Counted from the first letter of the stretch, positions 7,494 to 38,875 are shown. The stretch: 64,000 nt of DNA from Acidimicrobiia bacterium (GCA_049317385.1 JBMOIJ010000002.1:76581-140580), one strand, 5' to 3'. The notes: generated by a model from the sequence alone, not told the origin. Translations and numbers: made by a program.

Positions 7494-8176
7494 ACGGGGC
7501 CCTTCACCACGTGCAACCCGCACTCGGTCTTGTCGAGACCCGCCCACCGGCCGGCCCGACGGTCTTCGCCCGGCGCCACCGGACGGGTGCAGGGCCAACA
7601 ACCGATGGATGCGTACCCACGATCCGTGAGCGGATGGCGCAGCAACTGGTGCGCGTCGATGTAGTTGTCAATGTCCTGGTCGGTCCATGCCGCCAGCGGG
7701 TTCACCTTCACCACGTCGCGCGCGACGTCGAACTCGATGACCGGCGCGTGCGCGCGCGTGGGGGCATCGGCGCGCCGTATGCCGGTGATCCAGGCGTCCT
7801 TCTCGGCCAACACCCGGTTGAGCGGCTCGACCTTGCGCACGCCGCAGCAGCCCTCGACGTCGTGTTGCCAGCGATTGTCGCGGACGACGCGGGGATCGGG
7901 GGTCACAACGCGCAGATTGAGCTGGTAGCGCTGGCGCAGCGCTTCGGCATACCACTCGGTCTCGGCGAACAGGTACTGCGTGTCGAGCAACACCACGTCG
8001 AGTGTGGGCGCCACCTGCGCCACCACGTCGATGAGCGCAGCGTCTTCGAAGCTGGCGGTGAAGACGACCCCATCGCCATAGGTGGCAACCGCCCACTCCA
8101 CGATTGCGGCGGCACCCCGCGGCTCGAGTTCGGCGGCGAGCGCCGGGATCTGGTCAGCAGTGGGACGATCGGTCAC
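7490..8176 (-). CDS. cysH: adenylyl-sulfate (APS)/PAPS reductase, thioredoxin-dependent, with Fe-S cysteine motifs
   Basis: Motifs are EGCCGVRKVEPL, SIGCWPCT and KTECGLH. The GTG start at 8176 is inferred from the usual N-terminal length. The CC...CxxC pattern is typical of APS-type enzymes. Confidence 0.85.
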   Translation of the reverse strand: MTDRPTADQIPALAAELEPRGAAAIVEWAVATYGDGVVFTASFEDAALIDVVAQVAPTLDVVLLDTQYLFAETEWYAEALRQRYQLNLRVVTPDPRVVRDNRWQHDVEGCCGVRKVEPLNRVLAEKDAWITGIRRADAPTRAHAPVIEFDVARDVVKVNPLAAWTDQDIDNYIDAHQLLRHPLTDRGYASIGCWPCTRPVAPGEDRRAGRWAGLDKTECGLHVVKGPV

Positions 8177-9161: not shown

Positions 9162-11771
9162 CTAGTGCGCCGAGTCACTCGCGTCGGCCGTTCCGATCGC
9201 GAAGTCCACGATGACCGTGGTGCCGTTGGGGCCAGCGTGAAGGGTGCGCCGCGACGAAAGGTTCTCCGCCAGCACGGTGCCGCGCCCACGCGGCGACTCC
9301 GACCCCGGGGCCGGACGCCGCTTGGTCCTCCAACGTCCGCTGTCGCGAACCTCGATTCGCACGTGATCGGCGTGGATACGTCCCGCCACGTACACGGCCG
9401 TGCCACCGTGCTCGATTCCGTTGGCAACAAGTTCATTCGTGGTCAACACGATGTCGTCGGTGAGTTGCGCACCGAGTGATCCCGCCTGACACCACGCGGT
9501 CACGGTGGCGCGCAATTCCTTCAACTCCGCGAAATCAGGAGCAACTCGTAGGTCGAATGCCGTCTGCGAGTTGGCGCGCGCAAATATGACGAGTGCCACG
9601 TCGTCGACTGCCGCAGTGGAGGCAGTCATGGTGTCGAGCACCTGGTCAGCAGCCATCTCGACATCGGCGGACGCCTCCTCGAACGCCGCAACAAGATCTG
9701 CAATTCGGTCGTCGATGAGCGTGCCCCGACGCTCGAACAGCCCGTCGGTGCAGAGCAAGACCTGCTCACCGCGTTCGAGCACGAACTCGTCTTCCGAGTA
9801 CTGGGCGTTGCCAATCGCGCCGATGGGTGGGCCACTGGCCCCTTCGATCAATCGGCAGGTGCGGCCGCTGTGCACCACTGGCGGCAAGTGGCCGGCCCGC
9901 GCGTACACGCACCGACCGGTGGCGGGGTCGAGCACCGCCACAATGGCCGTGGCCATCGCGCGGTCGGTTCGACCGTGGGCGAACTCGTTGGCAGAGGCAA
10001 GAATCTCCCCCGGGCTCGCGCCAGTAATGGCCTGCATCTCGATGACGGTGCGGAACCGACCCATCGTCGCCGCTGCGTGAGCGCCGTGCCCCACGACGTC
10101 ACCGATCACCAACATCACGCGGCCGTCGGGCAGCACCACCGTGTCGTACCAGTCGCCACCCACCTGGACGTCGACGGCACCCGGGACGTACCGCACGGCG
10201 ACGTCGACGGTGCAGAGGCGCGGCAGTTCGTCGGGGAGCAAGGCGCGTTGCAGGTGTTCGGCGGTGGCCCGCTGCCGTTCGAAGCGAATTGCGTTCGCCA
10301 TCCAGGCACTGACCCTTCGCCCCACCTCCTCGGCCATCGGGATGTCTTCGACGGTGTAGCTCCGCCCACTGTCGGCAAAGCCGAGCGCCAACACTCCGCG
10401 CACCTCTCCGCTGTCGAGGAGCGGCACAGCAATGAGGCTTTTGACGCCCCACAAACGCGCAATCGCACCCTCCTGGAGGTTCCGAGCGATCCGATCCACC
10501 GCCTCAGTGGTGAACCGTTCGATGAGCACGGGTTCTTGGGTGCGGGCGGCGACGGCTGCGGGGGTGTCGTCGTTGATGGACCGGCTGGGCCACGGACCGT
10601 ACTGATTCCGGAACTGATCCTGCTCCGCGTTCAGCGAAGTCGCGTTGAGCAACGACACGCGCTCGCCATCGACCCGGAAGATCGCACAGACGTCGGCGAG
10701 GTCCGGAAGTAAGATGCGGGGCAACGTATAGAACCTCGACCGCACGTCGAGTTCCACTCCCACCATCTCACCCAGACGCGCCAAGATCTGCATGCGCTCG
10801 CGCGCTCGCGCCGCCTCGGCGCGGAGACGGTCACGCTCCAGGTAGTCGGACACCCGCCGACCAACCTGCTCGACGAGCGTCGTCACCGAATCGCTGTAAC
10901 GACGTTCCGACACATGCGTGTAGGCCAACGACATGAGGCCCAGGATGTGGTCGCCGAAGATGAGCGGAACGAGGAACACCGACTGCGCGCCCACCTCGCG
11001 CTGCACCGTGACCGCTGCGGGATCGGCACGGGCAGTGAAGCCGACGCTGGCCGCCATCTCTTCGGTCACCACGTCGATCAGCTGCGTCTTTCGGCCAATC
11101 GCCTCGACGACGGCGCGTTCGCTCCCCGTGGGCACAGCCCGACGCCCAAGTGTGCGCAACCGAGTCGCCGTGTCCGGATCGACGTGGGCAAACGCCACCA
11201 CCGGAGAATCGGCCACCGCGATGCTGCACAGGTCTCCGAACGTGGGGATCATTGCGTTGGCAATGGTTTGGAGGCCCCGTTCGATCTCGATCGAAGGCTC
11301 GGACAGCACCGAGGTGATGCGGGCCAGGAACCGCCACGCCAACTTGGCCTGCACGACCGACGTGGTGTTCTCGATGATCGCCCCGATGCCATACGGCGGC
11401 CCGTCGCCCACTGGGAAGACTGACCCCTGCCAGTGACGTTCGTATCGAGCGTCGGGGGTGAGCCCCGAGGACGACAGGCCGGTCTCGGCCACCCCGGTGT
11501 CGCGCACCCGTCGAAACGTCTCGGCAACCCGACCCCACAAGTTGGGGGCGAACGATTCCAACGTCCGCCCGACCACGGCCGCCGGGTCGTAGTCGGCGGC
11601 AATGACCTCGGGGTCCGAGATTGCAAGCAACCGGAACTCGGAGTCGAAGAACGCTATTGCAACCGGCGCATGGTGCAAGAGCGCGTCGACCTGGTCAGCG
11701 GGATCGTACGCGGAGCGGTCGGCCACGCCCCCACGGTAGGACGAGGGCGAACTCGCGCGGGACTCTCCCAA
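9162..11771 (-). CDS. PAS/GAF sensor fused to a PP2C (SpoIIE) phosphatase and a C-terminal RsbW-like HATPase kinase domain
   Basis: The PP2C core is GGDWYDTVVLPDGRVMLVIGDVVGHGAHAAATMGRF and LLCTDGLFE. The C-terminal ATPase motifs are TNELVANGIEHG and RGRGTVL. Confidence 0.8.
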   Translation of the reverse strand: MGESRASSPSSYRGGVADRSAYDPADQVDALLHHAPVAIAFFDSEFRLLAISDPEVIAADYDPAAVVGRTLESFAPNLWGRVAETFRRVRDTGVAETGLSSSGLTPDARYERHWQGSVFPVGDGPPYGIGAIIENTTSVVQAKLAWRFLARITSVLSEPSIEIERGLQTIANAMIPTFGDLCSIAVADSPVVAFAHVDPDTATRLRTLGRRAVPTGSERAVVEAIGRKTQLIDVVTEEMAASVGFTARADPAAVTVQREVGAQSVFLVPLIFGDHILGLMSLAYTHVSERRYSDSVTTLVEQVGRRVSDYLERDRLRAEAARARERMQILARLGEMVGVELDVRSRFYTLPRILLPDLADVCAIFRVDGERVSLLNATSLNAEQDQFRNQYGPWPSRSINDDTPAAVAARTQEPVLIERFTTEAVDRIARNLQEGAIARLWGVKSLIAVPLLDSGEVRGVLALGFADSGRSYTVEDIPMAEEVGRRVSAWMANAIRFERQRATAEHLQRALLPDELPRLCTVDVAVRYVPGAVDVQVGGDWYDTVVLPDGRVMLVIGDVVGHGAHAAATMGRFRTVIEMQAITGASPGEILASANEFAHGRTDRAMATAIVAVLDPATGRCVYARAGHLPPVVHSGRTCRLIEGASGPPIGAIGNAQYSEDEFVLERGEQVLLCTDGLFERRGTLIDDRIADLVAAFEEASADVEMAADQVLDTMTASTAAVDDVALVIFARANSQTAFDLRVAPDFAELKELRATVTAWCQAGSLGAQLTDDIVLTTNELVANGIEHGGTAVYVAGRIHADHVRIEVRDSGRWRTKRRPAPGSESPRGRGTVLAENLSSRRTLHAGPNGTTVIVDFAIGTADASDSAH

Positions 11772-18948: not shown

Positions 18949-19019
18949 GGCTGCACCGGGCGCATGAGCCACAACGAATTGGCGCCCCAAAATCCATGTC
19001 GTCGGAAGGATGCACTGCA

Positions 19020-21992
19020 ATGAAGCGCGTACTCGGACTCGACCTCGGCACCAACTCCATTGGCTGGGCCATTGTCGACGTTCCCGATTCCGATGACGAG
19101 GACGGCGATGTCGTAGCGATGGGGTCACGCATCTTCCCCGCGGGCGCAGAGATCGCAGGATCCAAGACGGAAACACGAGCGAAGGCGCGTCGCATGAAGC
19201 GTGCAATGCGCCGACAAATTGCGCGCCGCTCTCGCCGACGTCAAACCCTTGCCCGCGAACTAGCGCAGGTCGGCCTTCTGCCTGCGAACGATTCGGAATT
19301 CCAAGAACTGATGTCCCAGCAACCCGGCGAGCTACTCGATCGCGCACTGGCCGGCGGTGCGCTCACTGCGCATCAGGTTGGAAGAGTGCTTTATTGGTTT
19401 GCTTCGCGACGAGGGTTTCTCTCGCTGCGCGCTGGCGGGTCGCAGATGGTCGATGGAGACAGCGGGTTCACGCCGGCTCGTTTTCGCCTCTCTCAGTTCG
19501 ATGGCGAGACAGGTGAGCGTGTTCACCAAGGCCAAGAGGACCTCGTCATTGAGTTCGTCCGGTCTCAGATGCCCCATCACCCGGACCTCATCACCGAACA
19601 ACTGCTCTTTGGCACTCAGGGCCGTCAGCAATACCCGGTTCGCCCAATCAAGCGAATTGAGACCGACCCCAAGGATGGCTCAATCCAACGGTTCGGAATA
19701 CATGGTCTGCTGTTCTTCCAACGCAAGGTCTATTGGGACCAAGGAACAGTCGGGCACTGTTCGCTCGATCTAGATTCCCGACAGCGGCGAGCAGCTCGCG
19801 CTGAGCGAATGGCTCAACGCTTCAACGTTTGGCAGACCGTCGTGAACGTGCGTGTGGGCGAGGACCAACGCAGTCTCGCTCTTGCCGAGCGCGCACGGCT
19901 CTTCGATGCGCTCTGGTCGAAGAAGACCATGACCTTCGGCGCAATGCGGAAGCTGCTGAGCCTCAGCCCCGAGACCGCGATCAATTTCGAGCAGGACGAA
20001 ATCAAAGGCTTGAAGGGGAACCAAACAGATCCAGAGCTCAAGAAGGCCCTGAAGACCGAGTGGGAACTCCTGACGGAGGACGAACGAGACCAACTTGTAT
20101 TCCTCCTACTCGGCACGAGCACGGAAGAAGCGACACGGACGCAGCTCTCGGCACGTTTCCACCTAAGCGACGAGGGGTGCGATGCGGCCCTCAAAGTCAA
20201 ACTGCCCACCGGCCGCATGAACTATGGGCGGCGAACAATCGCTCGTCTACTTGAGACCCTGCCAGAAGCGGCAGATCTCCGAGACGCGATCGTTGCTGCC
20301 GGCTTCAAGCCGCCCGAAGAAGCTGTGGCAGCCAAGTCCACGGATCTCCACAAAGTCACCAATCCCTTGGTTCGTTCAACGCTCACCCAGCTCACCAAGG
20401 TGATTGCTGCGTTGCAGCGGAGCTATGAGCGCGCCGATGGGACTGCATTCGACGCTGTGCGCATCGAATTGTCACGCGATGTTTCTGCCTCCGCAAAGCA
20501 GCGCGAAGCGATGGTCAAACAGCAGAATGAGAATCGCCACTCGCGAGAGGCAGCGGTGAAGCTCATCAGCGAGTTTGCGCCGGGCTCCGAGAACAGTCGC
20601 GACGCGCAGCGAAAGGCTCGTCTCTGGCGCGATCAAGGCGAGCAGTGCCTCTACTGTGGCCAGCCCATCTCAGCAGTTGAGCTGTTTACCAATTCAGTTC
20701 AACTCGACCACATCCTGCCGCTTTCCAAGACCAACAACGACAGCCTCGCCAACGTGGCCGTCGTTCACGCAGTGGAGAACCTGGAAAAGAGCAATCAAAC
20801 CCCGTTCGAATGGGCCGGGCCCGACCGTCATGCGGAGCTCGTCGAGCTAGCGAAGTCGATGCGCCTCTCGCGCGCGAAGATGAACAACCTCAAGACACAG
20901 CATGTTGCACCCGATGCGATCCCATCCTCGCTCTTGGTCCAAACGGGTTACATCAATGCCTTGGCACGGACCGCCGTGCGCGATCAGACCGGCATTGAGC
21001 CCGAAATCTCGCGCGGGCGGCTGACCGCCCAGCTGCTCTACCGCATCGGCCTCAAGAAAGATTCAAGCGACCACCGCCGACACGCTCAGGACGCTGCGAT
21101 CATCGCGATTACGGATACGCGCCTCGCACTGAAGCTCGCCAAGCGATACGCAGCGGAGCGCGACTACGGGAATCAGCGGAGCGATGACTGGGGAGCCTGG
21201 GAACCATGGACCGGCTTCCGGGCGGAGGTGCTCGCCAAGTACGAAACGATCTTCGTTTCGCATCGGCCGAGCCGAAAGGTTCGAGGGCAACTCCACGAAG
21301 AAACGTTCTATGGAAAGGTCACGTCGCCAGGAAGCGATTCACCAACTCTCTATGCGCGGCGGCGCCAGCTCACGGGCGGGCTCACCGGCACCCAGATGGG
21401 GCAGGTAGCCGACCCTGTCGTTCGAAAGGCACTGATCGACAACCTGGCGGAGCGGGGCCTCGCTACTGATGGCGGATTCAGCCTTGATCCGTCGAATCCA
21501 CCCCGCCTCCCTGATGGCACTGGAATCACAAAGGTTCGCTGCCACATGAACATGCCAGCGAACCGGATCATCCGCCCCACCGATCAACCGAGGACGGGCG
21601 TCTCCCTCGCAAACAACCACGTTGCGTACGTGTTCCGAAACGAGAAGACAGGAAAACAGCGCGTGCACGTGGTGGCCCGCCTCGACGCGATCGCGACCCG
21701 CGCGCTTCCTGCACGGAGCGCGGCAGAGAGTGCCCGCGGCGAGGACGAGGAGTTCTTGTACAGCGTGACTGCAGGAGACCTGTTGCTTCTCAAGAACTCC
21801 AGCCCTGCCGAGCAGCTCGTGAGGGTGGCTCGTCTCGACGAGGGCGGAAAGCGCGTTTATGCCTTTCCGGCGAACAAGGCGATCCAGTCGAAAGAGGAGC
21901 GCCTCCTCCTGACTGGGGACCAGCTCGCTGCGCTGGGCGCAGTCAAGGTAACAGTCCCTCCCGATGGCGAACCTCGCCGAGCGAGCGACTAG
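19020..21992 (+). CDS. cas9: Cas9, compact type II-C-like (about 990 aa)
   Basis: RuvC-I is LGLDLGTNSIGWAIV. The Arg-rich bridge helix is RAKARRMKRAMRRQIARRSRRR. RuvC-II is VRIELSRD. HNH is QLDHILPLS...ENLEKSNQTPFEW. RuvC-III is HRRHAQDAAIIAITD. The ATG at 19020 has GGAAGGA 9 nt upstream. An alternative ATG lies at 18996. Confidence 0.95.
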   Translation: MKRVLGLDLGTNSIGWAIVDVPDSDDEDGDVVAMGSRIFPAGAEIAGSKTETRAKARRMKRAMRRQIARRSRRRQTLARELAQVGLLPANDSEFQELMSQQPGELLDRALAGGALTAHQVGRVLYWFASRRGFLSLRAGGSQMVDGDSGFTPARFRLSQFDGETGERVHQGQEDLVIEFVRSQMPHHPDLITEQLLFGTQGRQQYPVRPIKRIETDPKDGSIQRFGIHGLLFFQRKVYWDQGTVGHCSLDLDSRQRRAARAERMAQRFNVWQTVVNVRVGEDQRSLALAERARLFDALWSKKTMTFGAMRKLLSLSPETAINFEQDEIKGLKGNQTDPELKKALKTEWELLTEDERDQLVFLLLGTSTEEATRTQLSARFHLSDEGCDAALKVKLPTGRMNYGRRTIARLLETLPEAADLRDAIVAAGFKPPEEAVAAKSTDLHKVTNPLVRSTLTQLTKVIAALQRSYERADGTAFDAVRIELSRDVSASAKQREAMVKQQNENRHSREAAVKLISEFAPGSENSRDAQRKARLWRDQGEQCLYCGQPISAVELFTNSVQLDHILPLSKTNNDSLANVAVVHAVENLEKSNQTPFEWAGPDRHAELVELAKSMRLSRAKMNNLKTQHVAPDAIPSSLLVQTGYINALARTAVRDQTGIEPEISRGRLTAQLLYRIGLKKDSSDHRRHAQDAAIIAITDTRLALKLAKRYAAERDYGNQRSDDWGAWEPWTGFRAEVLAKYETIFVSHRPSRKVRGQLHEETFYGKVTSPGSDSPTLYARRRQLTGGLTGTQMGQVADPVVRKALIDNLAERGLATDGGFSLDPSNPPRLPDGTGITKVRCHMNMPANRIIRPTDQPRTGVSLANNHVAYVFRNEKTGKQRVHVVARLDAIATRALPARSAAESARGEDEEFLYSVTAGDLLLLKNSSPAEQLVRVARLDEGGKRVYAFPANKAIQSKEERLLLTGDQLAALGAVKVTVPPDGEPRRASD

Positions 21993-21996
21993 AGCG

Positions 21997-22905
21997 ATGG
22001 GCCGAGCAGTGATCCTGAGCGACCGGATTTCCCGGATCGACGTCAGGGATCATCAGCTCCGCGCCTACCCCAGTGACGGAACGGAAGCGAAGTCCGCACC
22101 TTGCGAAGACATCGACCTGCTTGTTCTCGACACCCATCTGCTGATCGGACTCGATTCACACGTTCTTCAGGAACTTGCTGCTGCGCGCTCGGCGATGCTG
22201 GTCACCAATCGTTCGCACATGCCCTGTGGCATCTTCCTGCCGTTCAGCGCGAACCTGGACCATGGGGCAGTCACGACTGCACAGTTCCAGATGAGCGTGC
22301 CGCGCAAGAAGCGGGCATGGCAGCAAATCGTGCGCCGAAAGATCCGCAACCAATCCGCATTGCTCGAACCGGGTAGCGCCGCTTACCGCAGGCTCCGGCT
22401 TCTTTCGGCAGAGGTCCGCTCGGGTGATTCGAGCAATGCCGAAGCACAGGCGGCCCGCACCTATTGGAAAGCGATGCTCCCAAGCGGCGTGCGCCGCAGT
22501 GCACGTTCTCGCCTCGGCGTCAACGCCGCCCTGGATTATGGATACGCAGTGCTTCGGGCGGCACTCGCACGATCCTGCGTATCGGTAGGGCTGCATGTCG
22601 GCCTTCCGCTCTTCCATTCGAACCTGCGAAATCCATTCGCACTCGTCGACGACCTGGTTGAGCCGTGGCGCCCGTTCGTCGACTCACGTGCTCGTTCGCT
22701 CGGCATCGGAGAAGACGACCTACTCGCTCCACACGATAAGGCTGAACTTGTCGGCGTGCTCCACGAGAGAGTGCAGTGCGGAGGAGTCGAGGGCCCTTTG
22801 ACTGAAGCCATGCTGCGCGCTTCGGCGGCGATGAAGCGCTATGCGTTCGGCGAGGCCGACGAGCTGGACTTGCCCGAAAGCCCGCGCCCGCGTGCTCGCG
22901 AGTGA
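21997..22905 (+). CDS. cas1: Cas1 integrase
   Basis: It starts 5 nt after the cas9 stop and is about 302 aa. The Cas1-like C-terminal region contains NAALDYGYAVLRAALARS and LPLFHSNLRNPFALVDDLVEPWRP. Confidence 0.9.
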   Translation: MGRAVILSDRISRIDVRDHQLRAYPSDGTEAKSAPCEDIDLLVLDTHLLIGLDSHVLQELAAARSAMLVTNRSHMPCGIFLPFSANLDHGAVTTAQFQMSVPRKKRAWQQIVRRKIRNQSALLEPGSAAYRRLRLLSAEVRSGDSSNAEAQAARTYWKAMLPSGVRRSARSRLGVNAALDYGYAVLRAALARSCVSVGLHVGLPLFHSNLRNPFALVDDLVEPWRPFVDSRARSLGIGEDDLLAPHDKAELVGVLHERVQCGGVEGPLTEAMLRASAAMKRYAFGEADELDLPESPRPRARE

Positions 22906-23221
22906 GTTCCGCGCCGTGTGGATGCTCGTGATGTTCGACTTGCCAGTCGGTTCCAAACGAGCGAAGACGGACTATCGACGGTTCCGCGACTTCTTACAGG
23001 ACGACGGCTTCGCAATGCTCCAGTACTCGGTGTACGGCCGGCATTGCGCAACGAGAGAAAGTGCCGACGCCCATGCGGCTCGTGTGCGCTTCGCTTTGCC
23101 GCCAGCAGGCGAAGTACGGATCTTGCGGGTAACCGAGGCGCAGTACGCGCGGATGGAAGTCTTCCGAAATTTCGAGCGACGTCACCCGGAACCCGCACCA
23201 GCGGTGCTCGAATTGTGGTGA
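22892..23221 (+). CDS. cas2: Cas2
   Basis: The motifs MLVMFDLPV, YRRFRDFLQDDGFAMLQYSVY and others are typical of Cas2. The start is ambiguous (GTG 22892, GTG 22916 or ATG 22922). It overlaps the cas1 stop. Confidence 0.85.
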   Translation: MLASEFRAVWMLVMFDLPVGSKRAKTDYRRFRDFLQDDGFAMLQYSVYGRHCATRESADAHAARVRFALPPAGEVRILRVTEAQYARMEVFRNFERRHPEPAPAVLELW

Positions 23222-23266
23222 GCGGAACCCCCGCAGCCCCGTGCACTGGGCTTCTCGGCGCTAACG

Positions 23267-24288
23267 GAGGTTACTAAACCCGAATTGGTGTCCTGCCCCG
23301 ACTGAGAAGTCACCTTCGGAATCGTGAGATGTGAGGTTACTAAACCCGAATTGGTGTCCTGCCCCGACTGTCCTCGTACTTCCTGCTGCCATCCGTAGGA
23401 GGTTACTAAACCCGAATTGGTGTCCTGCCCCGACCGTTTTGTTTGCCACACCGCCCACGGGTGGAGGTTACTAAACCCGAATTGGTGTCCTGCCCCGACT
23501 GGGGGATCGTGGATCGCAACGTCGCCGAAGAGGTTACTAAACCCGAATTGGTGTCCTGCCCCGACACGTTTGTTCATCTAGTGCACCAGCGCCCGGAGGT
23601 TACTAAACCCGAATTGGTGTCCTGCCCCGACGGACTACCCAGGAACTGTTGCGGCACCGGTGAGGTTACTAAACCCGAATTGGTGTCCTGCCCCGACCAT
23701 TCAGCTACCGGTTCGCGCGCCTCGTCGAGGTTACTAAACCCGAATTGGTGTCCTGCCCCGACCCCATGCTGGTTGTTGCCGAGAGTAAGGGCGAGGTTAC
23801 TAAAGCCGAATTGGTGTCCTGCCCCGACGCCGGTTTGGGTGAAGGTGGCGCGCGTGCGAGGTTACTAAACCCGAATTGGTGTCCTGCCCCGACTTCCCAG
23901 ATGCGGCCGTATTCGATGAGTTCGAGGTTACTAAACCCGAATTGGTGTCCTGCCCCGACAGCGAGCCCGAAAGTGGCATCGCCAAGCACGGAGGTTACTA
24001 AACCCGAATTGGTGTCCTGCCCCGACAACGGTACCCGTCGGCGGTGTCGACCTTTGAGGTTACTAAACCCGAATTGGTGTCCTGCCCCGACTCCTGTACC
24101 GCGAAGGTGATGCGCTGGCCGAGGTTACTAAACCCGAATTGGTGTCCTGCCCCGACTAAATCTCGACCGTGCCACCATTGCAGACGGAGGTTACTAAACC
24201 CGAATTGGTGTCCTGCCCCGACCGCAGCTGCGGCGGCAGCGACGACCCGGCGGAGGTTACTAAACCCGAATTGGTGTCCTGCCCCGAC
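23267..24288. CRISPR. CRISPR array: 16 repeats of 36 nt (GAGGTTACTAAACCCGAATTGGTGTCCTGCCCCGAC as written on +) and 15 unique spacers of 29-31 nt
   Basis: Each unit was counted by hand. Repeats start at 23267, 23333, 23399, 23464, 23530, 23596, 23662, 23727, 23793, 23858, 23924, 23991, 24056, 24121, 24187 and 24253. Only repeat 9 differs (C to G at 23805). Transcription is inferred to be on the minus strand from tracrRNA pairing. Confidence 0.97.
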
Positions 24289-24312
24289 GTAATTCCCGGG
24301 CTAGCGACTGCT

Positions 24313-29390: not shown

Positions 29391-29870
29391 ATGTCCAGCT
29401 CAGAAACGCCTCACGTGAGCGTGCTGATGGTGTGCATGGGGAACATCTGTCGGTCGCCCATGGCCGAAGCGGTGCTGCGCGCCCAACTCGACGACGCCGG
29501 TCTTTCACATGTGCACGTCGACAGCGCGGGCATCGGCGCATGGCACGTGGGCGAACGCGCCGACCGACGCGCCCGCGCTGAAACCGAACGCAACGGCATC
29601 ACCATCACGAGCCGAGCTCGCCAGATCAGCACGGCCGACTTCTTCGACTTCGAGCTGATCCTCACCGCCGACCACGAGGTGCACGCCGACACATTGCGTG
29701 TCGCGCCCGCCGGCCATGACGCCACCATCGCACTCCTGCGCAGTTTCGACGAGCACGCCGACGACCTGGAAGTCTCAGATCCGTACTACGGAGGACCGGA
29801 CGACTTCGCCGAGGTGTACGTGATGGTGTACGCGGCCTGCCGCGGCGTTGTCGCCCACCTGCAGCGCTGA
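29391..29870 (+). CDS. low-molecular-weight protein-tyrosine phosphatase
   Basis: The active site is VCMGNICRSPMAE. A DPYYG motif is present, and the protein is 159 aa. Confidence 0.85.
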   Translation: MSSSETPHVSVLMVCMGNICRSPMAEAVLRAQLDDAGLSHVHVDSAGIGAWHVGERADRRARAETERNGITITSRARQISTADFFDFELILTADHEVHADTLRVAPAGHDATIALLRSFDEHADDLEVSDPYYGGPDDFAEVYVMVYAACRGVVAHLQR

Positions 29871-30043: not shown

Positions 30044-30910
30044 CTACGCAGGCGGCGCAGGCGCAGGCGACGCATTCGCGGCGGCGAGCTGCGCATCGAG
30101 CTCGCGTTGGCGCAGCCCCTCGAGGAACCGCTTCGCCAACTCGGCGTTGTAGCGCGTCTCCACTTGCGAATCGGCATTCCCTAGGTACGGACTCGCAAGA
30201 TCGCCCTGACCGAACGCGTGCTTGTCGGGGTCGATGAAGTAGTAGCCGGTGTCGTTGCGGTACTCGATGACTGTTCCATCACCCTTGATGTTCGGGACCC
30301 GGTCCGCAGCGCGGTACACACCGTATCGACGTTCGCCGTCGACCTCGAGAGACGTCACCTTCACGACGTCGCGCGCTCCGGTTTCGTCAGCTGCCGTCAA
30401 GTCGTTGGCAAACATGGTCACGGCAGTACCCCAGTTGCGGACGTACGGGACGTACGAAGGCAGCTCGGCGAACGGTTCGCGGGCGAACACGTCCATGAAG
30501 TTGTTGGCGCCCGCGAACCCATCGCGTGCCTTCATGGCGTAGAGGATCGCGTAGAAGAGGTCGGTGATCTGTGCATCGAGGGTTGCGGCGTCATCACGTT
30601 GCCAGGTTGCGTCCGCCGCCGCTCGCGACTTGATTGCGGGGTCTGGCTCCGCAGCGGCACGGGCCTCGAACGCTTGCACCATCGTCAGCGCACGCTGACG
30701 CATGTCCTGCAGCGTGGCAGCCGACTGCTGCGCCTCGGAGATGATGGCCTCGAGCTCGCTCACGGCAGCCGACGCGTTGCTCATGATCTCGCTCACGCTG
30801 TCATTGATGGTCTTCGACGCTTGCTCCAGCGTGTTGCCGTACGCGCCGATGCTCGTGCCCACGTGACTCAGGACTTCTGGGATCGCTTGGGTGATCATTT
30901 GGTCACTCAT
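30044..30910 (-). CDS. candidate type VII secretion substrate/effector: helical N-terminal region plus an unassigned C-terminal domain
   Basis: It is the last gene of the minus-strand secretion operon. The N-terminal ~95 aa are Ala/Ser/Gln-rich and helical with no signal peptide. The C-terminal ~190 aa has no recognisable motif. Confidence 0.45.
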   Translation of the reverse strand: MSDQMITQAIPEVLSHVGTSIGAYGNTLEQASKTINDSVSEIMSNASAAVSELEAIISEAQQSAATLQDMRQRALTMVQAFEARAAAEPDPAIKSRAAADATWQRDDAATLDAQITDLFYAILYAMKARDGFAGANNFMDVFAREPFAELPSYVPYVRNWGTAVTMFANDLTAADETGARDVVKVTSLEVDGERRYGVYRAADRVPNIKGDGTVIEYRNDTGYYFIDPDKHAFGQGDLASPYLGNADSQVETRYNAELAKRFLEGLRQRELDAQLAAANASPAPAPPA

Positions 30911-30919
30911 CGCCCGCCC

Positions 30920-31189
30920 CTAAATGCCTGCGACGTGTTGACGCATACCGAGGCCGGTTGCCCGAGCGTGCTCGAGCCGCTCGGCTACCGCTTGCATCGT
31001 AGGCGAGAAACTGTCGCTGTACACAGAGGCAAACGAACCGTGCCACTGCGCAGCCCAGGCGTTGAAATCAGGTACCCGAGCCGCTCCGGCGGCGTTAGTG
31101 AGCTTCTCGCACGCGTCGGAGATTGAGTTCTTCCTCACGTTGCGCACGTCATCGACGCGGGCCTTGACCTGCGATGCCGTCAGCGGCAT
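30920..31189 (-). CDS. small helical WXG100-like protein (89 aa)
   Basis: It has a central W-x-G (AAQWHGSF), a size of ~90 aa, and ends 9 nt upstream of the 288-aa gene. Confidence 0.5.
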   Translation of the reverse strand: MPLTASQVKARVDDVRNVRKNSISDACEKLTNAAGAARVPDFNAWAAQWHGSFASVYSDSFSPTMQAVAERLEHARATGLGMRQHVAGI

Positions 31190-31275: not shown

Positions 31276-31575
31276 TCAGCCGGCCATGCCGCGAATGCGA
31301 CCGCCGTACATTGCGTCAGTACCCATCATCTGGTCGTGGGTCCGAACCGTGTTCTGACCGAACTGACGGTTCTGGTCACAGATCTGCTTGGCCCGGTTCA
31401 ACCGGAGCGCAATCTGGTCACGGATGCCTTGGGCGCCATCACCTTGGAACTGCGTCGACTGGAACACCGCGAGCAGCTCTTGGTGGGCAGCGTTGATGAG
31501 GTCAGCTCCGGTCGCCGTCTTGGTGTTGACGTCGGTGGCGCCGGTCGTGGTCATGCGAATGAAGTCAGCAGGCAT
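31276..31575 (-). CDS. small ESAT-6/WXG100-like helical protein (99 aa)
   Basis: Size, helical composition and the central turn FQGDG fit. It sits directly downstream of the EssC/EccC-type ATPase. Assignment is by context only. Confidence 0.45.
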   Translation of the reverse strand: MPADFIRMTTTGATDVNTKTATGADLINAAHQELLAVFQSTQFQGDGAQGIRDQIALRLNRAKQICDQNRQFGQNTVRTHDQMMGTDAMYGGRIRGMAG

Positions 31576-31605: not shown

Positions 31606-31914
31606 TCACCAGCCCGGAGTGACCGGGATGTTCGCCACGCCATTGGCGCCAGAGGCGACGAGCTGGTGGGACTGGCCGTCGAACTCGATGGTTTGCGACG
31701 ACAGCATCACGAGCACTTCGCGCAGGTACCCTGCGGCTCGCTTGAGGTCGGCGGAGAGCTGCACGCTGGCGTCGTGGTGCAAACCGGCGTGCCCGGTGTT
31801 GTTCACCGAGTTCGCCACGTTGCCTTGTGCGGCATTGAGGATCTCGCCGGCCTTGCGGGCCGACTCGGCGGTCTTGGCTGCATCGGCTGACGACAGCTGG
31901 GCGATCTGGGCCAT
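31606..31914 (-). CDS. small ESAT-6/WXG100-like helical protein (102 aa)
   Basis: AAGGAG lies 9 nt upstream of the ATG at 31914. Size and composition fit. There is no canonical WxG motif. Assignment is by context only. Confidence 0.4.
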   Translation of the reverse strand: MAQIAQLSSADAAKTAESARKAGEILNAAQGNVANSVNNTGHAGLHHDASVQLSADLKRAAGYLREVLVMLSSQTIEFDGQSHQLVASGANGVANIPVTPGW

Positions 31915-35000: not shown

Positions 35001-36422
35001 GGTGGACGCCACGCTCGGGCCATCGCTCCCCACGTGATCACGCGTATGCGGGAGCCATTTCGCCCATTCCCATGCGCCGGCGCGATCGGGCGGCACACAC
35101 ACCACCAGCCCCAGGTCGCGATGACTGTGCAACGCCGCCGCCTGGAGCGCACACCACGCGCCGGTTGCTTCGACGCGGTTGGCATCGCCGACCAGACCGA
35201 GCGAACGATCTTCAGGTAGCGCCGGCGCCAGTGGCACCGCCCGCAACGGACGGTCGATCATCAAGCGCTGCGCGGCCAACTTGCGCAGATCATCGCGCCC
35301 GCCGTCGGGCAGCTTCACCGATCCCAGCGCCGGAAGATCCGCCAAGCCCACGCGCAGCGCCAGGAAGTCAGGATCAGTTGCGCGCCGCTCCCAGACGTCG
35401 CTGCGCAAGCTCATGATGCGGTCGAGCACGTCGGCCGGGTCGGGTTGGGTGATCCGCCGCCGGCGCCGTTCGTCGTCGCGCGCGCTCGCGACGTCGGCGC
35501 TCAGCTGCTCGACGCGGCGACGGAACTCGGCTTCGTCGCCGCGACCTTTCTGCTTCGTCTTGCGCTTCTGGTCGAAGTGCTGCCACACGACCATGACCGG
35601 CGACAAGAACATGAACCCGGCGAAGAGGATGTTCTTGGTGAAGACCACCATCGCCACCCCCATGAGGAGCGGCGCGATGGCCATGGCCCAGGCGATCTCA
35701 GGCCGCTGCGACCGTTCCGGTACGGCCGGCGCCTCGATCGTGCGTTCGACCGGCGGCACCGAGGTACGCGGCGGACGGTTGAATCGAACCTTCCCGTGCC
35801 GCACTTCTCGCTCGGGTGGCGGCGCGTCAACCGGTCGGTACGCCAACCGGTGCTCGCCGATCGCAAGGATCTCGCCCGGCGCCAGCTCGTAGGGCGCTCG
35901 GATGCGACGGCCTTCGGCCCGAACCCGCGCGCCCGGCGCCGGCACCACGCGCACCAAGCCGGGCGCAACCTCGAACGCGAACGGTTCGCGCACTGCCCCG
36001 ACTGCTCCCAGCCGCACCTCGTTGCGAGCGTCGTTGCCCACGCTGTGGGTTCCGGCCGGCAACGACCAGTGGCGTCCGGCGTCGGTTCCCCCGACCACGG
36101 CGAGTTCAATCACCGGTGCGGCCACCTGCGGTGCGCTCGCCGCGCCACCGAGGCCACCGTTGACGACCCAGTGCGTGTCTTCGCGTCGAGCCAACAGCAG
36201 CGCGTCACCGTTGCAGAGCGCAGCCGAGCGTACCGTCTGGTCGCCCAACCACCGCTTGCGTGCGGTGTCGAACATGGCGAGTTCGCCGGCCGCGCCGTCG
36301 GCGAGCCCCAGGTGCGCGGCAACCAGTGCCACGAGATCCGCAGCCATCGCCTCGTCGTCGATGTCGATCGCCACGTCACGAGCGGCGCCTCCGGGCGGTT
36401 GTACAACCAGCGCAAGTTCCAT
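32013..36422 (-). CDS. EssC/EccC-family type VII secretion ATPase (three FtsK/SpoIIIE domains) with an N-terminal ubiquitin-like and FHA-like region
   Basis: The ATG at 36422 shares one nucleotide with the upstream stop (TGATG). Two TM helices are present (IAWAMAIAPLLMGVAMVVF and ILFAGFMFLSPVMVVW). Walker A motifs are GTTGAGKS (with DEF Walker B), GTSGAGKT and the degenerate GPRQTGRT. Confidence 0.85.
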   Translation of the reverse strand: MELALVVQPPGGAARDVAIDIDDEAMAADLVALVAAHLGLADGAAGELAMFDTARKRWLGDQTVRSAALCNGDALLLARREDTHWVVNGGLGGAASAPQVAAPVIELAVVGGTDAGRHWSLPAGTHSVGNDARNEVRLGAVGAVREPFAFEVAPGLVRVVPAPGARVRAEGRRIRAPYELAPGEILAIGEHRLAYRPVDAPPPEREVRHGKVRFNRPPRTSVPPVERTIEAPAVPERSQRPEIAWAMAIAPLLMGVAMVVFTKNILFAGFMFLSPVMVVWQHFDQKRKTKQKGRGDEAEFRRRVEQLSADVASARDDERRRRRITQPDPADVLDRIMSLRSDVWERRATDPDFLALRVGLADLPALGSVKLPDGGRDDLRKLAAQRLMIDRPLRAVPLAPALPEDRSLGLVGDANRVEATGAWCALQAAALHSHRDLGLVVCVPPDRAGAWEWAKWLPHTRDHVGSDGPSVASTPDSSRELVGRLVDLVTARVNETRSGFTVDRSTLGAAVLAVLHERAVESASAVDRLLAEGPEVGVYVCWVGSDARKLPGGIRTVAELPARGFGRMHRPGTDTPEFEFVVDDVPHELVARAARALAPVVDVTSAAGGGGVPRVVNLLEMLDVENPTAEWVARGWRSPHARLDAPIGMAAEGPLTVDLRRDGPHALVAGTTGAGKSELLQTLVASLALSHSPQRLNFLFVDYKGGAAFAECVELPHAVGMVTDLDGRLARRVLLSLNAEVRRREHVFKARGVKDIVEFERVAPEEAPANLIIICDEFAVLAREVPEFVDGIVDVAQRGRSLGMHLVLATQRPAGVVNDNIRANTNLRIALRVADANDSTDVINDAAAVRIPRTLPGRAYARLGHSELTAFQAAYSGGYTAEKDKSSGTVADLTAGAKGRTSQPVVAEGSATDLRRLVDAMLGAAAQLHLPPVRRPWLPPLDPVIPIASLVGAEDFDPVDPGRRAAFGMIDEPAEQRQRVYVHDFESDGNILLYGTSGAGKTTALRSVAASLTVGTQARDVQFFVIDCAAGALTSLADLPHCGGVVTAREAEDVDRMLTYLERQVDERKTLLTGSGAGSFSEFRRIAAANGQATPPRIVVLLDSYGGFSAAFERVDYGAWNDRVQRLVAEGRPLGVSFVITGDRRGAIPYALGGLVECRLVMRMADADELTTLGVPHTIARDSVLPTGRAFMGDGIEMQFAVPGDDAAGDAQNRALRALVEYLQVRDGGQRAQRLESLPTQVPADRLPAPTEPLLLPIGVFAAPEGLALATADLRLGHYLVVGPRQTGRTNALAVIAAQAARGRGAELHLLSGRPSPLAALPIWSGVHVGMDMPTFVESLAGTLMMRPAGAPPVVLVIDDAEEIGDGMTAMALDAALRAPGREHLRIVAACDSGFAARAYSGWLAEVRRGRNVCCFRPDPQQDSELVGTRLRELPGQKWPAGRALLTIDRMPVTGQVAIVPERILRTRR

Positions 36423-37966
36423 CAGCGCTTCCCCGCCTTCAGCGAGGACGTGGTGGGGACCGGCGGCCGGGTCGCGCGCTCCAGCTGCGGGCGCATCGAC
36501 TCGAGGAACCACTGGCTGAGTTCACCGATCTTCGCCGTCTCGCTCTCGACATAGCCCCACACCTGCGCCTTGTCGCCGGTGAAGTCGACGCGTGCGGTCT
36601 GATCACCCGACAGACAGAAGTACTCGCCCGCCTTGGTCTGGTCCCGCGACGTGGTCCACGCGTGCACACCCGGCTTCGCGCACTTCTCGTCGGGTGTCCC
36701 TGCGCCACCAGTGTTGGTGGTGAGCAACGACGTGCGCTTGCCGTAGCTCTGCGCCATCGTCGACTCGTCGACGAACTCGGCAAGGGTAAGCGCACCGACG
36801 GGGGTTGCGCACTGCAGTCGGGCCACTTCGCCGACGCCGTCCCCCACCGGCACCGACTGGCACGACACACCGTTCGGCGCAATGGCCCGCAATCGTTGGG
36901 TGGCCAACGCGGCGGCGTCGGGCGCGGCCGTCGTGGTGGTGACTGCCACCGGCCGATCGTCGGATGATCCGAACAAGAAGTACCCGCCCAGACCGAGCAC
37001 CACGACCAGCGCGCCCACGCCCGCCAACACGGTTGCACGCGAGAAGCGCGGCGCCGCCATGGCCACGCGGTCGTCGTCTGCCGGTTCTTCCACGGCCGGG
37101 TCGGGGGTGACCAACGCCGTTTCGACGGCCTGCACGAACTCGGCCGGTGTGCGCGGGCGTTGGTCGATACGGGCATCGAGCGCAGCCGCGAGGAGCGCGT
37201 CGAGCGCCATTGGCGCGTCGGGGCGGAACGATCGCAGGCGGCGCGGCAGATCGCCCTCGTGCCACGGTACGTACTCGCCATCGATCCACGCCGGCCCCAC
37301 CGGGGCCACGCCGGTCACCGCGGTGAAGTACGTGGCGGCGAGCGAGTACACGTCGGCGCGGCCGTCGAACGCCCGACCGGCATTGAACTCCGGGGCCGAG
37401 AACGGGTCGCGATCGAGTTCGTGATCGGGGGCGACACTGAAGTCGCTGACGAACACACGTGCGCGCGTGAGATCGCGATCGTCCATGAGGACGTTGGAGG
37501 GTCCACACTTGCCGTGCCACTCCGCGTGGGCGTGGGCGGCATCGAGCACCGTGGCTACCGCGCGCACCACCGCCAGTGCCAGCTGCGGGTCGAGCGCGCC
37601 GTGCTCTTCGATCACGTCAGCGAGGCTGGCGGCGAGCACCGTGCGGTACGCGACGTAGGGCACGCCGTTGACTTCGCCCACGTCGTGCACGTTCACGTTG
37701 GTGAGGCGATCGAGGCGATGCGCGCGCTCGGCCAATGCCCACGCCCGCGCCCGCACATCCGACGCCGGCCGCACGCTCGACCACACCTTCAGCGCCAGGT
37801 GGTACCCGGTGCGGGTGTCGACGGCGCGGTACACAGCGCTCCACCCACCGGTGCCGAGCAGCGCCTCCAGGCGGTACGGGCCGAACTCCGAACCGACGGC
37901 CAGTGGCGGGGCGGCGCGCGACGACTCACCCGGTCCGGGTGTGTGCGCGTCGAAGCCGTCGGCCAT
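36422..37966 (-). CDS. membrane-spanning Ser/Thr-kinase-fold protein, predicted pseudokinase, with an extracellular Cys-containing domain
   Basis: The Gly loop is LGTGGWSAVY and the lysine context is LALKV. The catalytic loop reads HGKCGPSN where HRDxKPxN is expected, and DFS replaces DFG. The TM helix is VLAGVGALVVVLGLGGYFLF. The C-terminal ~170 aa contain 4 Cys. Confidence 0.75.
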   Translation of the reverse strand: MADGFDAHTPGPGESSRAAPPLAVGSEFGPYRLEALLGTGGWSAVYRAVDTRTGYHLALKVWSSVRPASDVRARAWALAERAHRLDRLTNVNVHDVGEVNGVPYVAYRTVLAASLADVIEEHGALDPQLALAVVRAVATVLDAAHAHAEWHGKCGPSNVLMDDRDLTRARVFVSDFSVAPDHELDRDPFSAPEFNAGRAFDGRADVYSLAATYFTAVTGVAPVGPAWIDGEYVPWHEGDLPRRLRSFRPDAPMALDALLAAALDARIDQRPRTPAEFVQAVETALVTPDPAVEEPADDDRVAMAAPRFSRATVLAGVGALVVVLGLGGYFLFGSSDDRPVAVTTTTAAPDAAALATQRLRAIAPNGVSCQSVPVGDGVGEVARLQCATPVGALTLAEFVDESTMAQSYGKRTSLLTTNTGGAGTPDEKCAKPGVHAWTTSRDQTKAGEYFCLSGDQTARVDFTGDKAQVWGYVESETAKIGELSQWFLESMRPQLERATRPPVPTTSSLKAGKR

Positions 37967-38038: not shown

Positions 38039-38875
38039 TCAGTAGCGGCGCATCACCTCTTCGAATCGCTCCGACACGGTCGCGGAGACCGTCTCGAACT
38101 GGTCGGGCGAGAGCTGCAGCGCCTCGAGGGCAAAGAGGCTCGCCTCGGGGTCGGTGTTGTCATCGTTGCCCGCACCGATCGTCTTCGCGATCACATCAGC
38201 CACGTGGACGGCGAGGGTGATCGGCTCGGCACATTCATCGGGGTCGTGGTGGTACGTGATCCCCTGGGTGATGGCTTCGGGCAGCCCCCAGCTCTGGGCG
38301 ATCAGTCCGCCGAGTTCCCCGTGGTGCACACCGAGGATCTCGGACTCGGCCACCCGACGCGACACCCCACCTTGTTCCTGGGCCCGCTCGAGCGTCTCGA
38401 GCACTGCGGCGTCGAGGAACCGACCCATCACCAGCTTGCCCACGTCGTGGAGCAACGCGGCCGTGGTGGCCTCGTTCGGGATACGGACACGCGTGTGGCG
38501 CGGCATCACTTCCGCAGCCAACGACGCCGCCACCGAGTGACGCCACAGGTCACCTTCGGCCAAGCCGTACTCGGGCAACGACTGCTGCATCCGCTTGCGC
38601 ACGTTCACGCCGAGCGCCAGCGACAGGACGGTTCCGTAGCCAAGCCGGATGACTGCGTCGCGAACCGTCGTGATCGACGTGCGGCTCGCGCTCCACGAAG
38701 AGTTCGCGCTGCGCAACAGGCTGGCGGTCAGCGCTTGGTCGTACCCGACGATCTCCGCGATCTCGGCGAGGTCCGGGTCGCCGTTGGAAACCAGGGAAGC
38801 CAAGCGGGTGACACTCGCAGGGAGCGGTTCGAGGCACGCAGCCGCTTCGGCGAGAGCATCGAGATCCATCGCCAT
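38039..38875 (-). CDS. HDOD-domain signalling protein
   Basis: An HD-like core is present (ALLHDVGKLVM, GVHHGELGGLIAQSWGLP), and length and architecture are typical of HDOD proteins. Confidence 0.7.
   Translation of the reverse strand: MAMDLDALAEAAACLEPLPASVTRLASLVSNGDPDLAEIAEIVGYDQALTASLLRSANSSWSASRTSITTVRDAVIRLGYGTVLSLALGVNVRKRMQQSLPEYGLAEGDLWRHSVAASLAAEVMPRHTRVRIPNEATTAALLHDVGKLVMGRFLDAAVLETLERAQEQGGVSRRVAESEILGVHHGELGGLIAQSWGLPEAITQGITYHHDPDECAEPITLAVHVADVIAKTIGAGNDDNTDPEASLFALEALQLSPDQFETVSATVSERFEEVMRRY

Follow-up and report, generated by a model that had tools for sequence, protein, structure and literature searches.

A probable kinase-like partner of a type VII secretion ATPase

The pseudokinase YukC of T7SSb, a Firmicutes variant of type VII secretion systems (T7SS), binds the FHA2 domain of YukB through its alphaC helix, and the ubiquitin-like protein YukD stabilizes the contact (PMC12637312). 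None of the three catalytic motifs is left in EssB (PMC12599244), which possesses a helical ectodomain (PMC3694306), and the FHA domains of EssC are without a phosphothreonine site (PMC11217815). Membrane kinases occur in T7SSc, T7SSd, and T7SSe, together with FHA domains competent to bind phosphothreonine (Garrett, Higginson and Palmer 2024, PMC11217815), and an Esx-linked kinase pathway phosphorylates an FHA protein, with FHA proteins fused to EccC in Actinomycetales (2026 preprint, PMC13622651). No link between T7SS and Acidimicrobiia was found in the papers searched. Here, we analyzed a stretch of 64,000 nucleotides (nt) from an Acidimicrobiia bacterium (GCA_049317385.1 JBMOIJ010000002.1:76581-140580), referred to as the window at its full length, which encodes a membrane pseudokinase of 514 amino acids (aa) in overlap with an EccC/EssC-type T7SS ATPase (Table 1). 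On balance, we favor the view that the pseudokinase is a bitopic, noncatalytic partner of this ATPase, encoded directly downstream. The two proteins probably descend from a phospho-signaling pair, which now looks like a fixed scaffold resembling EssB–EssC of Firmicutes.

A recognizable kinase fold without catalytic motifs

The pseudokinase gene has a Shine-Dalgarno-like AGAGGAG 8 nt before its ATG and a third-codon-position G+C content (GC3) of 0.85, which is typical of coding sequence in a window of 66% G+C. Its product is identical to the NCBI entry 'protein kinase domain-containing protein [Acidimicrobiia bacterium]', derived from a metagenome-assembled genome (MAG); a promoter and terminator scan at the locus was uninformative. 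Membership in the kinase fold is supported by the Pfam Pkinase model (PF00069), which matches with 42.6 bits against a cut-off of 31.7 (E value of 6e-11), and by HMMER matches to Mycobacterium tuberculosis PknE (2h34; E value of 5e-28) and PknI (3e-18). The homology to kinases is, at these E values, far beyond chance. In the AlphaFold2 (AF2) model, the predicted local distance difference test (pLDDT) is mostly ∼90 over residues ∼21 to 290, with dips at residues ∼171 to 200 and ∼221 to 240, and the best Foldseek matches of the model are PknI (TM-target 0.77-0.79) and PknE (0.78).

The Gly-rich loop (G38-T-G-G-W-S43) and the beta3 lysine (L57-A-L-K60-V) can be read directly from the protein, as can the degenerate catalytic loop and the DFS that replaces DFG. 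In the HMMER alignments to PknE and PknI, HGKCGPSN falls on HRDVKPEN and DFS on DFG. To place these motifs in a larger set, 69 sequences, i.e., the pseudokinase and its 68 best database homologs, were aligned with MAFFT. The column of the catalytic Asp holds K153 in the pseudokinase, that of the catalytic-loop Lys holds G155, and that of the DFG Gly holds S177, and the canonical residue is present in 67/68 homologs in each case. In this alignment, the alphaC Glu column likewise holds L78 in the pseudokinase, with E80 two residues downstream, and Glu in 67/68 homologs. The single exception in each of the four columns is the same protein, an ortholog from a metagenome (P0002, described below), which has His in the alphaC position. 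No alignment placed an Asp within the catalytic loop, the nearest being D162/D163, after N158. The DFG-to-APE activation segment is only 19 aa long, compared to a median of 30 (range, 28 to 31) in the homologs; about 11 residues are missing, so that the protein has no activation loop and no GTxxYxAPE P+1 motif. The protein thus has neither the Asp and Lys of HRDxKxxN nor the DFG and full-length activation segment with a P+1 loop of an active Hanks kinase. It retains K60, in a column that is invariant in all 68 homologs, together with N158, D175, APE, D205, and R270. These results agree with the original prediction, made from the DNA sequence alone, that the Gly-rich loop and beta3 lysine are kept while the catalytic Asp, the loop Lys, and DFG are lost, and its reading of the catalytic loop withstood the HMMER and MAFFT alignments that could have restored the Asp. 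Its further claim of a scaffold rather than an enzyme holds as far as the fold without catalytic Asp, Lys, and Gly is concerned; the lack of enzymatic activity is predicted.

The topology resembles that of EssB/YukC, with a kinase-like domain N-terminal to one transmembrane helix and a 4-Cys domain C-terminal to it in the hydropathy scan and the AF2 model. The helix is flanked by Arg residues on its N-terminal side and by an acidic SSDDRP stretch on its C-terminal side. This architecture had been anticipated, although the ectodomain, estimated previously at ∼170 aa, is slightly longer (182 aa). Its four cysteines are conserved in both known relatives, and it is, at the sequence level, an orphan. 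When a profile of the ectodomain was searched against 1.84 billion representatives, the only matches were the protein itself and P0002; a three-sequence alignment searched against 5.8 billion proteins found nothing at an E value of ≤0.01, and there was no Pfam match even at an E value of 10. The AF2 model of the ectodomain, in which a mixed alpha/beta fold is predicted, has low confidence (pLDDT of 47), and a Foldseek search of this low-confidence model against the PDB gave no match at an E value of ≤0.001.

An overlapping ATPase with fused ubiquitin-like and FHA-like domains

The stop codon of the pseudokinase gene (TGA, 36424-36422) and the ATG of the ATPase gene (36422-36420) have one base in common. 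The start of the ATPase is fixed by its N-terminal MELALV sequence, which is conserved in the ortholog. The same TGATG overlap is present in the ortholog locus and an ATGA overlap in the third known locus, such that a stop/start overlap with the ATPase gene is kept in all three known family members. The original prediction took the shared nucleotide to imply stoichiometric coproduction; the overlap supports translational coupling, and an overlap alone is not proof of 1:1 stoichiometry.

The ATPase belongs with the FtsK-like multi-NTPase membrane ATPases of the EccC/EssC type. It scores 353.8 bits against TIGR03925 (EccCb), above the cut-off of 346.55, and 582 and 384 bits against TIGR03928 (EssC) and TIGR03924, respectively, both below cut-off. 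The FtsK_SpoIIIE domain matches with an E value of 2e-57, and the matching PDB chains include EccC (4nh0; 1.5e-81) and YukB (9qks; 1e-66). Together with the FHA profile matches described below, these results agree with the earlier identification of the overlapping gene as a secretion ATPase with an FHA-like N-terminal region.

Two domains precede the motor. The first is ubiquitin-like and resembles YukD/EsaB: a profile built from 30 N termini of the ATPase family matches ubiquitin-like proteins in the PDB at E values of 2.6e-6 to 1e-4, and Pfam YukD matches 7/30 of the N termini and the ortholog ATPase at an E value of 0.01. A fused N-terminal YukD-like domain is also found on FHA-bearing EccC/EssC ATPases of Actinomycetota (proteins P0122-P0240), and a Bifidobacteriaceae ATPase outside the profile set (P0174) has, by eye, a similar N-terminal sequence pattern. 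Such fusion could be the reason that Garrett et al. 2024 saw no separate ubiquitin-like gene in T7SSd (PMC11217815).

The second domain is a degenerate FHA-like domain. Yop-YscD_cpl matches it at an E value of 0.017 in the window, and the corresponding region of the ortholog matches Yop-YscD_cpl at 3e-10 and FHA at 1.7e-5; a profile of the two sequences matches FHA domains in the PDB at 4e-4. The Arg of GR, the Ser and His of SxxH, and the Asn of SxNG are the positions taken to bind phosphothreonine. In the alignment to the EmbR FHA domain, the window sequence has GN in place of GR and VREP in place of SRHH, and SSNG is lost. The pseudokinase gene overlaps, as in an EssB/YukC-type context, that of an EccC/EssC-type ATPase whose FHA-like domain lacks all four residues. 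The pseudokinase, the ubiquitin-like domain, and the FHA-bearing ATPase, i.e., all three modules of the T7SSb core unit, are packed into two overlapping genes.

Two relatives and a parallel decay of kinase and FHA domain

The only full-length relative among 5.8 billion proteins is P0002, from a Joint Genome Institute (JGI) metagenome, with 34% identity by BLAST and 39% globally. Its catalytic loop reads HGRIHPGN, DFG is replaced by DFA, the Gly-rich loop reads AAGAFTG, and the activation segment is again 19 aa long, so that by its motifs the ortholog is also catalytically dead. The structural-core residues H151, P156, N158, D175, F176, APE, D205, and R270 are invariant. The contig encoding P0002 (L001) has the same gene order as the window (ThiD-HDOD-pseudokinase-ATPase). 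Between the two loci, HDOD is 68% identical, ThiD 52%, and the ATPase N terminus 47%; the kinase-like domain reaches 41% identity and the ectodomain 31%. The pseudokinase gene thus evolves faster than its neighbors, yet it is clearly maintained. The 41% identity of the kinase-like domain and the intact open reading frames (ORFs) of 514 and 549 aa point to a gene under selection.

A second relative, reached by walking from ATPase homologs, is encoded next to the ATPase in another Acidimicrobiia MAG (L003, GCA_046331155.1). This 526-aa kinase-like protein aligns with the pseudokinase over the full length (28% identity, E value of 3e-28) and shares the transmembrane helix and 4-Cys ectodomain; it carries HGDVKPSN, DAG, and a 14-aa activation segment, and its flanking genes differ from those of the window and L001. 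No further members were recovered when GTDB genomes and JGI metagenomes were scanned with patterns, an approach of limited sensitivity. The genome scan with the ATPase N terminus yielded nothing confirmed, the genome scan with the three-member alignment yielded 80 ordinary kinases matched essentially in the kinase domain only, none reaching the Cys-containing ectodomain core, and the metagenome scan recovered only L001 again. The family thus appears rare, within the limited sensitivity of such scans, and no member was found in these searches away from an EccC/EssC-type ATPase.

Among 120 ATPase homologs, 86 keep the R/S/H/S/N residues of the FHA domain, about 12 are without FHA, and about 20 have a degenerate FHA domain. 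Where a canonical kinase (HRDIKPxN, DFG) is encoded nearby (L002 and L005), all phosphothreonine residues of the FHA domain are kept; they are also all kept in L006, which has no adjacent kinase. In L003, the kinase-like protein with HGDVKPSN and DAG accompanies an FHA domain that keeps Arg, Ser, and His and has lost Asn, and on these motifs this locus is an intermediate state. In L001, with HGRIHPGN and DFA, only the His is kept, and in the window, with HGKCGPSN and DFS, none of the residues is kept. The decay of the kinase and that of the FHA pocket are therefore parallel within the Acidimicrobiia trio, as a three-point series and not a statistic.

Other genes occupy the position before the ATPase gene elsewhere. 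In a Dormibacteria MAG (L004), a 440-aa protein with a weak PAS_4 match only is encoded at 6676-7998, 2 nt upstream of an ATPase with a partly degenerate FHA domain, and may be another lineage-specific ATPase partner. This gene and a 591-aa gene in L087 were considered as kinases and rejected, as neither has a kinase signal. In Mycolicibacterium litorale (L091), a gene for an RDD-family membrane protein (6315-7001) shares 1 nt with the start of an ATPase gene encoding a degenerate FHA domain, and PP2C and VWA genes lie close by. The canonical-FHA ATPase of an Acidimicrobiales MAG (L006, 3396-8004) is preceded by genes for a MoxR-type AAA protein, DUF58, a transglutaminase whose gene overlaps the ATPase start, and a giant Cadherin/Big_9 surface protein, a set that matches the Esr threat-sensing module (PMC13622651). 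The coupled position before the ATPase gene thus seems to be taken by differing partners.

Comparison with described systems

Like the pseudokinase of the window, EssB/YukC (6Z0F, 9QKS) combines a kinase fold lacking the catalytic Asp, one transmembrane helix, and an ectodomain of ∼180 aa, and is encoded with an FHA-bearing EssC-type ATPase and a ubiquitin-like module in the unit. A scaffold role on the FHA head of the ATPase is probable in both (PMC12637312, PMC9600267). In contrast to EssB, the window protein shows clear similarity to active Hanks kinases and has kept its beta3 Lys and N158 as well as the Asp of the DFG position. Its ATPase has one FHA domain rather than the two of T7SSb and a fused ubiquitin-like domain rather than a separate YukD, its ectodomain is an orphan with four Cys, and no EsaA or EssA homologs were seen.

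The proteins TsdD, TscD, and TseD (T7SSd, T7SSc, and T7SSe, respectively) are also bitopic, with an N-terminal kinase, and are encoded with the ATPase in actinobacterial or Gram-positive genomes; as in the window, the ATPases of T7SSd and T7SSe carry N-terminal FHA domains. The ectodomains of TscD, TsdD, and TseD are predicted to be helical. Whereas T7SSd has a competent TsdD kinase and a phosphothreonine-competent TsdC FHA domain, the window has lost both sets of motifs. TsdI, a large Ig-like envelope protein, was not found beside the cluster, nor is there an adjacent large secreted ORF; no search was made for TsdH.

PknI (5M06-5M09, 5XKA) and PknE (2H34) are the best sequence and structure matches. 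PknI resembles the pseudokinase in its very short activation segment and noncanonical catalytic loop (Lys replaced by Asn), but both PknI and PknE retain the catalytic Asp and have different ectodomains. Neither is known to be a T7SS component. Finally, the Esr pathway pairs a kinase with an FHA output module controlling Esx, with frequent fusion of EsrG, the FHA protein, to EccC (PMC13622651). Near the window cluster, there are no genes for MoxR, vWA, transglutaminase, or a beta-propeller sensor. Since the kinase is predicted to be dead and the FHA domain unable to read phosphothreonine, Esr-like phosphorylation signaling would not be expected here.

Because the locus departs from the YukC family in sequence and from T7SSd in its active-site and phosphothreonine-binding residues, it falls in neither family and is a variant with a putative EssB-like function. 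The pseudokinase is best read as an EssB/YukC analog derived from a T7SS-linked Hanks kinase and, by analogy, probably works like EssB.

Proposed mechanism and alternative explanations

The pseudokinase would have originated from a T7SS-linked membrane Ser/Thr kinase of the TscD/TsdD/TseD or EsrE kind; the described kinases of this kind target FHA modules that read phosphothreonine and are part of the ATPase or fused to it. Within this Acidimicrobiia lineage, a contact of kinase and FHA domain that depended on phosphorylation may have become independent of it. In that case, the head of the ATPase formed by the ubiquitin-like and FHA domains would be the docking site of the dead kinase domain, as YukB/EssC with YukD is for YukC/EssB in Firmicutes, and the docked domain may help channel assembly or gating. 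The ectodomain, presumably disulfide bonded, may contact the envelope or sense a cue that is relayed by conformation or dimerization, conceivably as a PknH-like sensor domain, and the kinase domain could bind nucleotide without phosphotransfer. We tentatively suggest that the three loci represent a stepwise joint loss of phospho-chemistry, in the order L003, L001, and the window, which would have led to an EssB–EssC-like constitutive scaffold independently of Firmicutes.

Several observations weigh against this interpretation. Binding of the FHA domain by the pseudokinase is proposed by analogy only. The loss of the alphaC Glu is an alignment-dependent call, because E80 is only two residues downstream of L78. 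The family has only three members, and the series of parallel decay is therefore anecdotal. At the loci examined in Mycolicibacterium, Microbispora, and Streptomyces, ATPases with a degenerate FHA domain have no kinase-like neighbor, so that FHA decay needs no pseudokinase partner; a general codecay of FHA domain and kinase is ruled out by the other neighbors found at these loci. Support for WXG100 proteins among the small ORFs of the window is weak by Pfam, NCBIfam, and hhalign. With the beta3 Lys, N158, and D175 still in place, the protein could also have a residual or different activity that depends on nucleotide.

The pseudokinase might instead be a true, very divergent EssB/YukC ortholog, in which case the pseudokinase-EssC pair would be ancestral and shared with Firmicutes. 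The shared topology (cytoplasmic pseudokinase, transmembrane helix, and ectodomain), the FHA-bearing EssC-like partner, for which EssC is the best NCBIfam model, and the presence of a ubiquitin-like module as in T7SSb are all compatible with such descent. The original prediction had stated that the protein mirrors EssB and proposed alignment to Hanks and EssB/YukC profiles. The likeness extends to topology and gene context but not to family membership: on the Hanks side, the protein aligns well, with PknE and PknI closest, whereas a Pfam scan returned only Pkinase and a weak Kdo match, with no match to YukC (PF10140) at an E value of ≤0.1. Active-type Hanks kinases are nearest in both sequence and structure, and the 50 Foldseek hits listed for the model include no EssB/YukC chain. 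Unlike the window protein, EssB has lost all three motifs (PMC12599244), and its helical ectodomain (PMC3694306) differs from the orphan ectodomain here, predicted at low confidence to be mixed alpha/beta. The L003 protein still has HGD..K..N, pointing to a loss of the catalytic residues inside this lineage. Orthology to EssB/YukC is thus unlikely.

An enzymatic role would make the protein an atypical kinase or give it another ATP-dependent activity, such as SelO-like AMPylation. New activities have been described for bacterial pseudokinases (PMC12599244), and G38, G40, G41, Lys60, the metal-binding N158, and D175 are kept, with K60, N158, and D175 common to the pseudokinase and P0002. However, the protein has neither the catalytic base nor the loop Lys, Glu is missing from the aligned alphaC column, the activation and P+1 loops are lost, and the partner FHA domain is also without a phosphothreonine pocket. 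The catalytic positions are occupied by Arg and His in the ortholog and by Lys and Gly here, and the Gly-rich loop of the ortholog is degraded, which disfavors a conserved alternative active site. We therefore regard a retained enzymatic function as improbable.

We give similarly little credence to a PknI/PknE-like membrane receptor pseudokinase of another pathway, for which adjacency to the ATPase would be incidental. The nearest relatives are indeed general signaling kinases, the upstream HDOD gene, encoding a signaling-type domain, is also syntenic and is more conserved (68%), and several related ATPase loci are without an adjacent kinase. On the other hand, the overlap with the ATPase gene persists in three members despite identities of only 28 to 39% and the differing flanks of L003, and the searches described above recovered no family member separate from such an ATPase.

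A decaying, functionless pseudogene of a former kinase, as the loss of several catalytic motifs and the faster evolution (39% identity overall compared to 47 to 68% for adjacent genes) might suggest, is rejected as very improbable on the basis of ORFs of 514 and 549 aa that are intact in two genomes at about 39% identity, invariant structural-core residues, a coding-typical GC3 of 0.85, and the conservation of the four Cys and the transmembrane helix.

Other features of the window

Downstream of the ATPase gene, on the same strand, are three ORFs of about 90 to 100 aa and one of 288 aa (Table 1). Across the whole profile, Pfam WXG100 matches the 99-aa ORF weakly (E value of 0.21), and hhalign sets its FQG on the WxG column with an E value of 0.069. 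The 89-aa ORF was compared by hhalign with WXG100 proteins from related loci, and related ATPase loci do contain WXG100 matches. No family match was found for the 102-aa ORF, and the 288-aa ORF has no significant family match. No genes for EccB, EccD, EccE, mycosin, EsaA, or large TsdI-like proteins flank the cluster, the neighbors of which encode aconitase, a low-molecular-weight phosphotyrosine phosphatase (LMW-PTP), HDOD, and ThiD. The HDOD gene is directly upstream of the pseudokinase gene in the window and in L001 (9094-9933), where it is the most conserved gene of the shared block (68% identity), and is missing from L003. The LMW-PTP gene (CX5R motif; 29391-29870, plus strand) abuts the distal end of the cluster.

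TABLE 1 Features of the pseudokinase-ATPase cluster (window coordinates; aa, amino acids)
Feature	Coordinates	Strand	Evidence
Membrane pseudokinase gene, 514 aa (kinase-like domain, transmembrane helix, 4-Cys ectodomain)	36422..37966	-	ORF and translation
Hanks-kinase-like cytoplasmic domain, aa ∼26-290	37097..37891	-	AF2 and Foldseek
Degenerate catalytic loop H151-G-K-C-G-P-S-N158 (canonical HRDxKPxN)	37493..37516	-	HMMER and MAFFT
D175-F-S177 replacing DFG; opens the 19-aa activation segment ending A191-P-E193	37436..37444	-	MAFFT
Single predicted transmembrane helix, aa 310-332	36971..37039	-	Hydropathy scan and AF2 model
Predicted extracytoplasmic domain, aa 333-514 (182 aa), Cys 369, 386, 429, 451	36425..36970	-	Hydropathy scan and Cys conservation
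TGATG stop/start overlap of pseudokinase and ATPase genes	36420..36424	-	Read directly
EccC/EssC-type T7SS ATPase, 1469 aa	32013..36422	-	NCBIfam, Pfam, and PDB matches
Ubiquitin-like (YukD/EsaB-like) domain fused at ATPase N terminus, aa ∼1-85	36168..36422	-	Profile searches
Degenerate FHA-like domain of ATPase, aa ∼104-196	35835..36113	-	Yop-YscD_cpl, PDB FHA, EmbR alignment
ORF of 102 aa downstream of ATPase; candidate small helical substrate	31606..31914	-	GC3 of 0.84, coding-like
ORF of 99 aa; weak WXG100-like candidate, FQG for WxG	31276..31575	-	Pfam WXG100, hhalign
ORF of 89 aa; weak WXG100-like candidate	30920..31189	-	hhalign E value of 0.004, low probability
ORF of 288 aa, N-terminal region probably helical; possible larger substrate (candidate)	30044..30910	-	No significant family match
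HDOD-domain gene, 72 nt upstream of pseudokinase gene	38039..38875	-	Pfam HDOD E value of 3e-48

Two further loci were noted in the window. A compact type II CRISPR-Cas locus (18996-24297) encodes a 998-aa Cas9-like protein (HNH_4, Cas9_a, and RuvC_III; 18996-21992) and Cas1 (21964-22905), followed by a CRISPR array (23267-24297) with 16 copies of the 36-nt repeat GAGGTTACTAAACCCGAATTGGTGTCCTGCCCCGAC and ∼30-nt spacers. An 869-aa PAS-GAF-SpoIIE(PP2C)-HATPase_c_2 protein (9162-11771, minus strand) is a regulator of the partner-switching type, unrelated to the pseudokinase.

Implications for the evolution of type VII secretion

T7SSb relies on a pseudokinase and an FHA domain that does not bind phosphothreonine, whereas other T7SS pair active kinases with phosphothreonine-competent FHA domains. 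The locus described here speaks to the transition between these states: a Hanks kinase is still recognizable, its catalytic residues are gone, the FHA domain of its partner is degenerate, and a relative, L003, is half-way. It represents a minimal two-gene actinobacterial T7SS core, consisting of a membrane pseudokinase and an ATPase with fused ubiquitin-like and FHA domains. If stepwise loss has in fact taken place, the loci would be a living model for the origin of EssB/YukC. If the interaction between the pseudokinase and the ATPase is confirmed, more than one origin of pseudokinase-FHA scaffolds would be implied for type VII secretion, and the three loci would represent sequence-tractable intermediates.

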